In this document: piece after piece, positions 2,782 through 40,995 of the stretch
Layout of the letters: every line of letters starts with the position of its first letter
How positions within the stretch are numbered: the first letter of the stretch is position 1
Origin: Escherichia phage vB_EcoM-RPN187
DNA: 64,000 nt
Reading direction: 5' to 3' (one strand)
Sequence record: OL770074.2
Position numbers and translations under genes: made by a program
Notes under the pieces: model-generated
What the model was told of the DNA's origin: nothing
Seen by the model: only the letters and a program-made list of their open reading frames with translations
The model's database searches: none

Positions 2782-5107
<2,326 letters not shown>

Positions 5108-7806: not shown

Positions 7807-9378
7807 ATGAAATTTAATATCTTAAGTTTGTTTGCTCCATGGGCAAAAATGGACGAACGTGATTACAAAGACCAAGAAAAAGAAAATTTAGAATCTATCA
7901 CCGCACCAAAATTGGACGACGGCGCTAAAGAATATGAAGTATCTGAAAATGAAGCACAGCAAACATATAATGCTATGTTTCAGAGAATGTTCGGTAGTCA
8001 AGAACCAGGGCTCAAATCAACCCGTGAATTAATCGATACGTATCGAAATTTGATGACGAACTATGAAGTGGATAACGCGGTCTCTGAAATAGTTTCCGAT
8101 GCTATCGTGTATGAAGATGATACAGAAGTCGTTTCTATAAATTTAGACAACACAAAATTTAGTCCAAATATCAAATCAATGATGTTGGATGAATTTAATG
8201 AAGTGTTAAATCATTTATCTTTCCAACGTAAAGGTTCAGATCATTTTAGACGTTGGTATGTGGATTCTCGAATTTTCTTCCATAAAATTATTGACCCTAA
8301 ACGCCCTAAAGAAGGTATTAAAGAGCTTCGTCGTTTAGACCCACGTCAAGTTCAATATGTCCGTGAAGTTATTACAACCACTGAAGCCGGTGTTAAAATA
8401 GTCAAGGGTTATAAAGAATATTTCATTTATGACACATCACACGAATCTTATGCTTGTGATGGTCGCATATATGAAGCCGGCACAAAAATAAAAATCCCTA
8501 AAGCCGCGATTGTTTATGCCCATTCTGGTTTAGTTGATTGTTGTGGTAAAAATATCATTGGTTATTTGCATCGGGCTATTAAGCCGGCGAACCAATTAAA
8601 ACTTCTTGAAGATGCCGTCGTAATTTATCGTATTACTCGTGCTCCTGATCGTCGTGTATGGTATGTTGATACAGGTAATATGCCTTCAAGAAAAGCAGCC
8701 GAACATATGCAACATGTTATGAATACGATGAAAAACCGTATTGCGTATGATGCTACTACAGGCAAGATTAAAAACCAGCAGCATATTATGTCGATGACCG
8801 AAGATTATTGGTTACAACGACGTGATGGTAAAGCGGTAACAGAAGTTGACACATTACCAGGTGCAGATAATACTGGAAATATGGAAGATGTACGTTGGTT
8901 CCGTAATGCGCTTTATATGGCTTTACGTATTCCTATTACCCGTATTCCAAGTGACCAAGGTGGTATACAGTTTGATGCTGGTACTTCTATTACACGAGAT
9001 GAATTGACATTTGGTAAATTTATTCGTGAGCTGCAACATAAATTTGAAGAGATATTCCTAGACCCGCTTAAAACTAATTTAATTCTTAAAGGAATTATTA
9101 CAGAAGATGAGTGGAATGATGAAATAAATAATATTAAGATAAAATTTCATCGGGATAGTTATTTCTCGGAATTAAAGGATGCTGAGATTCTGGAGCGTCG
9201 CATTAATATGCTTCAGATGGCCGAACCATTTATTGGTAAATATATTTCTCACAGAACAGCTATGAAAGATATTCTTCAGATGTCTGACGAGGAAATTGAA
9301 CAAGAGGCTAAGCAAATTGAAGAAGAGTCGAAAGAGGCTCGTTTCCAAGACCCCGACCAAGAACAAGAGGATTTTTAA
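7807..9378 (+). CDS. 20: portal vertex protein gp20
   Basis: 523 aa; length and position match T4 gp20. Confidence 0.95.
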
Positions 9379-36881: not shown

Positions 36882-37463
36882 TTATTCACCACAAAAGTTT
36901 CGGATTTGTTCCCAATTCAGAGAACGAAGATTATTACGAGAGTACTGAATTACTTCAATACCGGCTTGTTTTAGAATGTCTGCCCAATTTTCAGGAGATC
37001 GATCGTATAATTCTGCGTATACAACCTTTTTAATACCTGACTGCGTAATAGCTTTAGTGCAATCAGGACACGGAGAAAGCGTCGTATATAACGTAGCACC
37101 TTCAATAGAATTACCTTTACGAGCTGCAAACAAAATTGCGTTCAGTTCCGCATGGATTTCGTTATTAGCAGACCATGCACTATGAGCCGCTCGATGTTCT
37201 TTAGCCAAAACAAAATTATCTGCCCGTCCAAATGCCGTAGTGCCTTCTTTATGTCCAGCAACGATGACCGGACTTGGTTTATTCTTCAACCAACCATTTT
37301 CGGATGCATGTTCGCAACAGTTAACGCCACCGGCCGGTGAACCATTATATCCAGTAGAGATAATGCGCCCATCTTTTTCAATGACGGCACCAACTTTCCA
37401 TGAACAACATTTTGATTCTTGAGAAATCAAATAAGCAATTTGAAGATATGTGCTAGCTTTCAT
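36882..37463 (-). CDS. cd: dCMP deaminase
   Basis: 193 aa; zinc-binding HAELNAI and SPCPDC motifs; close to T4 Cd as recalled. Confidence 0.9.
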   Translation of the reverse strand: MKASTYLQIAYLISQESKCCSWKVGAVIEKDGRIISTGYNGSPAGGVNCCEHASENGWLKNKPSPVIVAGHKEGTTAFGRADNFVLAKEHRAAHSAWSANNEIHAELNAILFAARKGNSIEGATLYTTLSPCPDCTKAITQSGIKKVVYAELYDRSPENWADILKQAGIEVIQYSRNNLRSLNWEQIRNFCGE

Positions 37464-38455: not shown

Positions 38456-38575
38456 AACAATCCTTAGGAGATATAAACAGATTCTGATTCAACAATACCT
38501 TTAACCGGATTAGACAGGCTAAGTTAGTAGTGCTCAGATTTATGACCATTCTCGATAGTAATTAGATAACTCTCA

Positions 38576-38812
38576 TTATAGTGTTCCATATACTCGAGTT
38601 GCTTCAACGAGACCATCACTGCCTAATTTAAGATTAGTAATTTGGTCACCATCTTTAGGATTAACGATTATGAGAAAAGAACGAGGAGATTCTTGAATAA
38701 CTCGTAATGTTGCATCCTGGAAACGTTCAGACACTTTATTGATGAGTGTTTGAGCGAATTCTTTTACTTTAATCTGAAATTCGTGTACTGTAATTGGATT
38801 TTCACTTAGCAT
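38576..38812 (-). CDS. hypothetical protein
   Basis: 78 aa; ATG preceded by GAGGA; first gene after an early promoter. Confidence 0.45.
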   Translation of the reverse strand: MLSENPITVHEFQIKVKEFAQTLINKVSERFQDATLRVIQESPRSFLIIVNPKDGDQITNLKLGSDGLVEATRVYGTL

Positions 38813-38838
38813 TTCTATTTCCTCATTTGTTGGTAGAG

Positions 38839-38870
38839 TTATAGTATCACAACTCCACCATGTTGTAAAC
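38839..38870 (-). promoter_or_regulatory. T4 early-type promoter driving ORF 38576..38812, DAHP synthase and cd
   Basis: Reverse complement reads gGTTTACaacatggtggagttgtgaTACTATAAc. Confidence 0.5.
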
Positions 38871-38872
38871 CA

Positions 38873-39148
38873 TTAAATTGCTTTGCATTCAATTTTTTGT
38901 GAATCGAAATCAACTTCACATTGAATTACTAGATCAGCGTCAAGTCCAAACACAACAATCACATGAGCCGAGCTTGGCAACAGTGTAACAGACACAGAAT
39001 CCACTTGGTCTGGCACCAGCGTATTCAAAACGTAGAGTAGTTCAGAGTGGATCTTAAGCTCGGTGGCCGTATCCGGCTTATCAAAGAAATGATTTGCGAT
39101 AATCTGACTAAAAACTACCTTTACAATTTCAGAATATTTAGGGAACAT
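38873..39148 (-). CDS. hypothetical protein
   Basis: 91 aa; ATG start; compact early gene array. Confidence 0.45.
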   Translation of the reverse strand: MFPKYSEIVKVVFSQIIANHFFDKPDTATELKIHSELLYVLNTLVPDQVDSVSVTLLPSSAHVIVVFGLDADLVIQCEVDFDSQKIECKAI

Positions 39149-39155
39149 AATTACC

Positions 39156-39380
39156 TCAGTGCACAGTATTTACTTTAACTCGAACAACAAATCGCTCGGT
39201 TGGTTCACCTACAGGAACAAACTCTACATGATATTCACCTTTGTAACGAGTATTCAGATCATTACGAATTCCTGCGAGTTTGTTGATTAATGTAGGACTC
39301 ATATTAAGTCCCACTAGTTTACGAAGCATTTTGTATGCTTCATCTTCGATTTCATGATGTTTATCGTACATAGTTTTCAT
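39156..39380 (-). CDS. hypothetical protein
   Basis: 74 aa; ATG start. Confidence 0.45.
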   Translation of the reverse strand: MKTMYDKHHEIEDEAYKMLRKLVGLNMSPTLINKLAGIRNDLNTRYKGEYHVEFVPVGEPTERFVVRVKVNTVH

Positions 39381-39551
39381 TTAACCATTCAATTGCCTGG
39401 TCGACGTTATCAAATATACTGCCGTCCAACCATTCTTCATGTTCATAGTCCAGCACATCAATACCGAACCGTCCATTTACTAAAGGCCATACTACAAACA
39501 AATATTCTTTATGCTGTTCGATGGCCTCAATCACTTCATATAATCGTTTCA

Positions 39552-39552
<1 letters not shown>
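39361..39552 (-). CDS. hypothetical acidic protein
   Basis: 63 aa; ATG start; overlaps neighbours by a few nt. Confidence 0.4.
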
Positions 39553-40638
<1,086 letters not shown>

Positions 40639-40639
<1 letters not shown>

Positions 40640-40938
40640 TATTTTATTCCTAAGAAAATTTCAAGAATACGAATGTTATGCTCGCGCCGGTCTTTATTAA
40701 TTTCAGCAACGTTTTTATTAATTGACGTACTTCTAACGTTTGAAGAAATAAATTTAATCATATGACTTTTGAGTTGTTGCAAATCCAACCCTTTTTCTTT
40801 AGCAGCTTTACGAAGAGCTTTACCTGCTTCATCTAGTGCCTTTGCTGCATCTTTGTCATAATTGCCAAGTGACATTCCACGGCAGATATCAATATACTCA
40901 TCAGACCGTTTGATGTAATTCTCTAGTAATGTTTTCAT
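40639..40938 (-). CDS. hypothetical protein
   Basis: 99 aa; ATG start; lysine-rich. Confidence 0.4.
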
Positions 40939-40995
40939 TTAGATTTCCTCAATTATCCATAGGAGCATTATACTCTGCTCCTGAGAGTTTGTAAA

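Follow-up and report, generated by a model that had tools for sequence, protein, structure and literature searches.

Four catalogued accessory genes between pseT and a DAHP synthase gene in a T4-like Escherichia phage, and a plausible counter-defence role for Cd.4

Between pseT and the gene for 3-deoxy-D-arabino-heptulosonate 7-phosphate (DAHP) synthase, a 64,000-nucleotide (nt) stretch of Escherichia phage vB_EcoM-RPN187 (record OL770074.2; the whole stretch is referred to below as the window) carries four small, closely packed minus-strand open reading frames (ORFs) of 63, 74, 91 and 78 codons, and the question they raise is what such an array does for the phage. By their matches to named families, all four are already catalogued T4-family accessory genes, namely, in order of transcription, cd.4, RB69ORF227c (hereafter ORF227c), cd.3 and cd.2, in an architecture that is ordinary for T-even phages. 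We lean towards a reading in which they encode four separate, early-made accessory proteins that are important only in some hosts, with Cd.4 as a counter-defence or host-range factor. Finding the array in one more Mosigvirus is routine, and the genes are already annotated as conserved hypotheticals. They are of interest only as part of the accessory gene set of T-even phages that still awaits explanation, several members of which have recently proved to be inhibitors of bacterial immunity, and for one concrete lead: in published data on a clinical isolate, cd.4 counts as conditionally essential, along with pseT and cef.

The identity of the four ORFs was established by BLASTP against the T4 proteins of the slot. 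The 63-residue product matched T4 Cd.4 (54% identity over 63 residues, E 3e-26), the 91-residue product T4 Cd.3 (65%, E 3e-44) and the 78-residue product T4 Cd.2 (65%, E 9e-34), and no T4 counterpart was found there for the 74-residue product, which is 100% identical to RB69ORF227c (NP_861917). Each protein fell into one PHROGs family of unknown function. Cd.2 matched Pfam domain of unknown function (DUF) family DUF7320 (120.3 bits, cut-off 27; residues 1–77 of 78) and Cd.3 matched DUF7355 (117.2 bits, cut-off 27; residues 1–91), as did 13/13 aligned relatives in each case. Cd.4 belongs with the T4 Cd.4 family (UniProt P39500) by phrog_2360 (E 1.9e-33), by its full-length BLASTP match and by having pseT alongside, and precomputed tables place PF26883 on homologues at 76–97% identity. 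ORF227c likewise belongs with the RB69ORF227c family by phrog_3609 (E 3.5e-41), by its complete identity and by occupying the same position between cd.4 and cd.3; it has no Pfam family, and members of its own family are lacking in T4 and other Tequatrovirus. The sequence-only reading of this DNA had described four ATG-started minus-strand ORFs between pseT and DAHP synthase in the T4 cd.x slot, and this was borne out both by the ORF coordinates and by orthology to T4 Cd.2, Cd.3 and Cd.4, with the same series of gene and ORF names (cd.4, RB69ORF227c, cd.3, cd.2) given to all four in the RB69 record. The short overlaps it also described hold for pseT and cd.4, which have 1 nt in common (TAATG), and for cd.4 and ORF227c (20 nt), but elsewhere there are gaps of 7 nt (ORF227c to cd.3) and 60 nt (cd.3 to cd.2, with a promoter-like site inside).

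The locus nevertheless differs from that of T4 in several respects. The genes cd.5 and cd.1 are missing from the window, with DAHP synthase in the place of cd.1. Cd.4 is like T4 Cd.4 in length, acidity, conserved motif and place near pseT, but T4 has cd.5 between pseT and cd.4, whereas cd.4 of the window directly abuts pseT. Cd.3 has 91 residues in both phages (T4, P39499) and lies upstream of a conserved early promoter in both, and Cd.2 (T4, P39498) lies directly downstream of that same promoter in both. However, T4 cd.2 has a GTG start in another N-terminal register and is followed by cd.1, whereas cd.2 of the window has an ATG start with a strong Shine-Dalgarno sequence and is followed by DAHP synthase. 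A small insertion or deletion right after the common Shine-Dalgarno sequence alters the N-terminal residues of Cd.2 between T4 and Mosigvirus (T4 8250–8350 versus window 38800–38890). The 3.7 kb around the array are 98% identical to Escherichia phage AV112 and ~97% identical to Bas47/AlbertHofmann (Mosigvirus), and on this nucleotide similarity the window is that of a Mosigvirus-type T4 relative.

The four ORFs are genuine genes under purifying selection, because the ratio of nonsynonymous to synonymous divergence (dN/dS) was 0.0–0.41 for all of them in pairwise comparisons with AlbertHofmann, RB69, JS98 and T4, with synonymous divergence (dS) reaching up to saturation, and because they are retained in 337–921 phage records (described in detail below).

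For the T4 orthologues of cd.2, cd.3 and cd.4, early transcription, detectable protein and dispensability in Escherichia coli K-12 are documented in published supplements. The supplements of PMC9697503 class T4 cd.2 as early at both the RNA and the protein level, and cd.3 and cd.4 as early for RNA and middle for protein; all three proteins have therefore been detected. T4 cd.1–cd.5 are given as ‘Not Fit’, that is, with no fitness effect on CRISPRi-ART knockdown, in the supplement of PMC11879866, and T4 cd.1–cd.5 and Bas37_0050–0054 are scored as ‘Non-essential’ in K-12 in the supplementary tables of a transposon-sequencing (HIDEN-SEQ) preprint (bioRxiv 10.1101/2025.11.20.689424).

The same HIDEN-SEQ tables, whose values are log2 fold changes of insertion counts relative to K-12, hold the phenotype of cd.4. 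On the uropathogenic isolate CFE299, insertions in T4 cd.4 were depleted at −2.93 (~8-fold down, adjusted p printed as 0.00000), with the mean over 16 sites falling from 286 to 37. Also depleted were pseT (−5.27), nrdC.1 (−4.80), cef (−3.99) and dsbA, and the other genes of the T4 slot were unaffected (cd.5, +0.06; cd.2, −0.01; cd.3, −0.30; cd.1, −0.33). In T4, cd.5 separates cd.4 from pseT and was itself unaffected, so the cd.4 effect is gene-specific and not positional on pseT or cd, and the authors of the preprint argue against widespread polar effects. Bas37 displayed the same trend on CFE299, with its Cd.4 orthologue at −2.26 (p 0.010, adjusted p 0.31) and PseT at −1.90 (adjusted p 0); on CFT073, neither the Cd.4 orthologue (+0.12) nor pseT (−0.13) was affected. 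A knockout construct of bas37_0053, the Cd.4 orthologue, was built by the same authors. CFE299 carries two Septu systems and a type VI retron, and NrdC.1 is reported there to inhibit Septu. Septu is reported to cleave tRNA-Tyr in T6 infection (PMC13096335). Literature searches by gene and family name returned nothing on these genes in main texts, the useful data being in supplementary tables; cd.4 goes unmentioned in the main text of the HIDEN-SEQ preprint, and its data are public in the tables.

The favoured reading can be put in mechanistic terms. Each of the four products would be a small soluble cytoplasmic protein of 63–91 residues without a catalytic motif, which would probably bind a macromolecule of host or phage, act stoichiometrically and matter in particular hosts only. 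Cd.4 would be the counter-defence or host-range factor among them, and a host-specific fitness loss, as would be expected of an anti-defence protein, is indicated for its T4 and Bas37 orthologues on CFE299. Most likely it would work in, or alongside, a pathway by which tRNA or RNA is shielded from nuclease-type defence or mended after it; we place it there because, in T4, it is needed in CFE299, where PseT, the Septu inhibitor NrdC.1 and Cef, a tRNA-maturation factor, are needed too. It could be an acidic, nucleic-acid-like decoy that blocks a defence protein, or it could assist PseT, as both options fit its acidity (isoelectric point (pI) 4.3, net charge ~−9), its conserved acidic positions (invariant residues in the family alignment are E12, F19, D32, D35, E39 and G44) and its start codon, which overlaps the stop of pseT. 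On inspection, the acidic motif was rejected as EF-hand-like, since its positions misfit the loop consensus. A tentative and somewhat unlikely extension would have Cd.4 as an undescribed T-even counter-defence factor in the pathway of PseT, directed against tRNA- or RNA-cleaving immunity of pathogenic E. coli, such as one of the Septu or retron systems of CFE299, and Cd.3, ORF227c and Cd.2 as similar binders, specific for hosts yet to be sampled. A counter-defence role for Cd.4 is plausible; from these orthologues we infer how the proteins would function in this phage, what they would bind and whether Septu or the retron is involved.

Known small T4 anti-defence proteins offer a comparison. 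NrdC.1 (against Septu), AdfM/Tk.4 (against DarTG2) and Dmd (against RnlA) are all small, early, dispensable in K-12 and needed in defended hosts, and T4 cd.4 behaves alike in CFE299, but without a matched defence system and without any sequence or fold relation between these proteins and Cd.4. The sequence-only reading had seen in the array the classic architecture of a host-takeover or anti-defence cassette, and this has experimental backing for cd.4 only, through its depletion in CFE299 in T4 and the same trend in Bas37; cd.2 and cd.3 were without phenotype in the tables examined. It had also named an outcome that would tell against it, conserved T4 cd.1–cd.5 orthologues with no phenotype, and this is largely what we found: three of the four are Cd.2, Cd.3 and Cd.4 orthologues and the T4 genes are dispensable in K-12, but cd.4 is depleted in CFE299.

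Several points weigh against the reading we favour. The Cd.4 phenotype comes from the supplementary tables of one preprint, whose authors report no matched defence system, and the Bas37 replicate was not significant after multiple-test correction. The phenotype was measured on the T4 and Bas37 proteins; Cd.4 of the window is only 54% identical to that of T4, so that it can only be assumed to share the function. Neither of the phages screened has ORF227c, and T4 cd.2 and cd.3 displayed no phenotype in the tables examined. Adjacency to pseT is a weak argument, as gene order is conserved across the whole region and pseT occurs without cd.4 in 6/14 loci. Finally, we infer, and do not observe, the binding and interaction roles of all four proteins.

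The proteins themselves were examined for further clues. The pI was 4.6 for Cd.3, 5.7 for Cd.2 and 9.0 for ORF227c, and none of the four had a convincing membrane segment, the sole transmembrane-like stretch of 19 residues being a beta-hairpin stretch of Cd.3. Scanning every family member against Pfam (E up to 1) gave only the two DUF families, searches of PADLOC-DB defence components at E up to 1 gave no match for the four proteins, and the sole NCBIfam match was a sub-threshold one of Cd.2 to MoaD (14 bits against a cut-off of 49.5). Nothing significant was returned by Protein Data Bank sequence searches with single proteins and family profiles, where the Cd.2 profile gave weak SuhB/inositol monophosphatase matches (E ~0.6). 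The earlier statement that no functional motif can be recognised agrees with these searches and with PHROGs, which yield families of unknown function only, and the profile and structure-based searches it had proposed gave DUF families and generic fold resemblances.

AlphaFold2 models were built for ORF227c and Cd.3 on few homologues (shallow alignments); a concatenated four-family profile intended for distant homologues returned mostly close Cd.2 relatives, and the alignments stayed shallow. The ORF227c model (predicted local distance difference test score (pLDDT) 86) has two helices (residues 4–20 and 29–45) and a beta-hairpin (strands 50–56 and 66–72), and the Cd.3 model, of fair quality (pLDDT 79), has two helices and a four-stranded sheet. 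Fold matches to Cd.3 were moderate and mixed and included the inositol monophosphatase N-lobe (8.5), the IraD anti-adaptor (7.9), PilX (7.8) and TssE and gp25-like proteins (7.3 and 7.2). Searching viral folds (BFVD) with Cd.3 gave only DUF7355 members and weak gp25-like matches, with many rows unnamed. The two models have fold neighbours in common and their first three elements are nearly alike; both proteins are predicted to be two-helix-plus-beta-sheet adaptor-like modules. For such a fold, IraD would be a precedent as a stand-alone inhibitor, by resemblance only: the likeness of IraD and gp25/TssE-like proteins to Cd.3 and ORF227c is structural, with ≤12% identity and no sequence-family match, and ORF227c has only two strands.

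Other explanations of the array start from its neighbours or from its folds. The four proteins might be accessory subunits of neighbouring enzymes, with Cd.4 serving PseT in RNA end-healing, as its cofactor or for its specificity, and the others part of the deoxynucleoside triphosphate-synthesis machinery around deoxycytidylate (dCMP) deaminase. In the window as in RB69, JS98 and EcS1, cd.4 starts on the stop codon of pseT; cd.4 is at most one gene from pseT in 8/8 loci that have it, and one and the same host makes the two genes important, with both of them neutral in CFT073. However, T4 PseT is well studied and active by itself, pseT is kept in loci that lack cd.4, and a gene order conserved as a block makes adjacency little informative; together with the much stronger phenotype of T4 pseT (−5.27 versus −2.93) and the lack of any co-phenotype of cd.2 and cd.3 with cd in the tables, this makes such an arrangement unlikely. 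It is less likely still that the array consists of diverged tandem duplicates of one small alpha/beta domain with a single mode of action for all four. Helices 3–20 and 27–44 and strand 49–56 of Cd.3 are nearly superimposable on the first three elements of ORF227c, and weak BLASTP links in a tiny database join Cd.2 to ORF227c (E 0.002) and to Cd.3 (E 0.05), but profile–profile probabilities stayed below 4% among the six slot families (hhalign, 0.1–3.8% for all 15 pairs of Cd.1, Cd.2, Cd.3, ORF227c, Cd.4 and Cd.5), the BFVD search with Cd.3 returned no entry named Cd.2 or ORF227c among its many unnamed rows, and small topologies of this kind are very common. That the four ORFs are paralogues, as drawn from those BLASTP links and from similar helix and hairpin patterns, was thus rejected at the sequence level by profile–profile comparison; a shared origin of Cd.3 and ORF227c, visible as a common fold only, is possible.

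The slot is variable: cd.1 and cd.5 have been lost, the allele of cd.3 has been swapped, and DAHP synthase or an ORF resembling a homing endonuclease has been gained. Together with dispensability in K-12, this would suit a hyperplastic region filled with functionless or selfish genes that bring the phage no benefit. This we consider very improbable given dN/dS of 0.0–0.41 over deep divergence (dS > 1), retention in hundreds of genomes of several genera, production of the T4 proteins (PMC9697503) and the host-specific fitness effect of cd.4. The gp25-like fold matches, in turn, could mean that Cd.3 and ORF227c are diverged copies of the gp25/baseplate-W (sheath-initiator) fold with a part in tail or baseplate assembly. 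This is hardly credible, as T4 expression is early and not late (PMC9697503), the genes are non-essential in K-12, no Pfam gp25-family match (GPW/gp25-like, IraD included) was found at E up to 1 among 13 and 12 family members, and the equal or better scores of the inositol monophosphatase N-lobe and IraD point to generic fold similarity. Separate host-specific accessory proteins thus remain the reading we favour.

We further investigated the occurrence of the four families by tblastn against 50,697 phage records, with taxa judged from organism names. Matches were found in 921 records for Cd.3, 796 for Cd.2, 689 for Cd.4 and 337 for ORF227c, all of them T4-like phages of Enterobacteriaceae and close relatives and almost all named Tevenvirinae. 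In a comparison of 14 loci from 13 genera or lineages, Cd.2 occurred in 14/14, Cd.3 in 13/14, ORF227c in 10/14 and Cd.4 in 8/14; BLAST clustering counted Cd.3 in 12, the thirteenth being the FBB1 copy, recognised by Pfam only. Cd.4 occurred in phages of Escherichia, Shigella, Salmonella and Yersinia, with no named Klebsiella or Enterobacter phage among its tblastn matches, a host distribution that we count among the grounds for proposing a counter-defence or host-range role, and the Jiaodavirus, Karamvirus and Marfavirus loci compared were without cd.4; Cd.3 and ORF227c do occur in Klebsiella and Enterobacter phages. ORF227c lay between cd.4 (or pseT) and cd.3 in 9/10 loci and next to cd in Serratia phage 4S. 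A heterodimer of Cd.4 and ORF227c, suggested by their opposite charges and overlapping genes, is disfavoured, as each is present without the other in many genera.

The ORF227c family is, by profile search, very narrow: against 1.84 billion representative proteins its profile found only 4–5 clusters of 70–71-residue proteins like those of T4-type phages. A 1,426-residue repeat protein (E 2e-5) matched over seven short stretches and was treated as spurious. Two metagenomic proteins (P0010 and P0013) joined the first ~55 residues of ORF227c to a fragment of the tRNA-synthetase B5 domain (PF03484) and are most likely an assembly chimera. The extra MKT at the N-terminus of the window protein, which starts at Met1 (39380), occurred only in its closest, Mosigvirus-type relatives, and the homologues compared from other genera start at the equivalent of Met4 (39371; 71 residues); the true start may therefore be Met4.

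Within this otherwise conserved block, cd.3 stood out. The allele of the window occurred at ≥90% identity in only 41/921 records and was 70% identical to RB69 Cd.3, compared with 94–100% for neighbouring genes. Its dS to RB69 was 1.28 versus 0.07–0.24 for pseT, cd.4, ORF227c, cd.2 and cd, which makes cd.3 a rare divergent allele within Mosigvirus, probably swapped in by recombination as an island, rather than the product of a burst of positive selection (dN/dS 0.14). In EcS1, the Cd.3 homologue (EcS1 locus 3791–4252) has 153 residues, with an N-terminal extension of ~70 residues, the C-terminal part of which is loosely Cd.4-like and could mean a gene fusion.

Expression signals were sought by a consensus scan, which overall was not enriched over shuffles (13 sites found versus 14.4 expected). 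The sequence-only reading had put an early promoter at 38839–38870, ahead of the 78-residue ORF, and this is supported by a minus-strand site at 38869..38841, (G)TTTACA-17 nt-TACTAT with an upstream TG, whose sequence is kept almost to the base in T4, RB69 and JS98, each time at the homologous position, and is conserved there in AlbertHofmann too; the T4 record annotates early promoter Pe133295 between cd.2 and cd.3. A strong GAGG Shine-Dalgarno sequence precedes both cd.3 and cd.2. No minus-strand terminator-like site was found in the scan between pseT and cd, so that cd.2 can reasonably be taken to be co-transcribed with DAHP synthase and cd, in keeping with what had been proposed from the letters alone. 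The transcript carrying cd.4, ORF227c and cd.3 probably starts at the 40995..40967 site, and the overlap of the pseT stop and cd.4 start suggests translational coupling. Coordinates of all features are given in Table 1.

Table 1 Features of the array and its surroundings in the window
Feature	Position	Strand	Basis or remark
cd, dCMP deaminase	36882..37463	-	Downstream of DAHP synthase
AroF-like DAHP synthase, 330 residues	37463..38455	-	Pfam DAHP_synth_1, 3e-74
120-nt spacer, cd.2 to DAHP synthase	38456..38575	-	Featureless in scans
cd.2 orthologue, 78 residues	38576..38812	-	ORF list and sequence
Sigma-70/T4-early-type promoter-like site	38841..38869	-	Consensus scan; between cd.3 and cd.2
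cd.3 orthologue, 91 residues	38873..39148	-	ORF list and sequence
RB69ORF227c orthologue, 74 residues	39156..39380	-	ORF list and sequence
cd.4 orthologue, 63 residues	39361..39552	-	ORF list and sequence
pseT, polynucleotide 5'-kinase/3'-phosphatase	39552..40451	-	phrog_505, E 1e-123; Pfam HAD_PNKP and AAA_33
Best promoter-like site in the region, TTTACA-17-TATAAT, 11/12	40967..40995	-	Consensus scan

Some minor observations concern the flanks of the array. The 40967–40995 site precedes a 99-residue ORF (40639–40938) and a 63-residue ORF (40448–40639), followed by pseT; these two ORFs correspond to RB69ORF231c and RB69ORF230c and, by comparison with T4, are insertions that separate pseT.1 from pseT. 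The 99-residue ORF has a weak TnsD match (E 0.0017) and is labelled ‘putative homing endonuclease’ in Bas47. On the other side, the spacer and the region around it gave no Rfam match at E up to 1, and the RNA fold of the spacer was no better than that of shuffles (z +0.8). AlbertHofmann/Bas47 annotates a 41-residue ORF that overlaps the end of cd.2; the corresponding frame of the window (38456–38619, minus strand) holds only 21–31 residues, as a 31-residue GTG-started ORF with an ATG-started portion of ~21, and the 41-residue ORF is probably not a conserved gene. The DAHP synthase matched Tyr-sensitive DAHP synthase 6agm (E 1e-104), with a shorter N-terminus, the alignment beginning ~9–10 residues into E. 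coli-type enzymes. RB69 is without the gene, whereas Klebsiella phage Marfa, EcS1 and PEi20 have it at this position.

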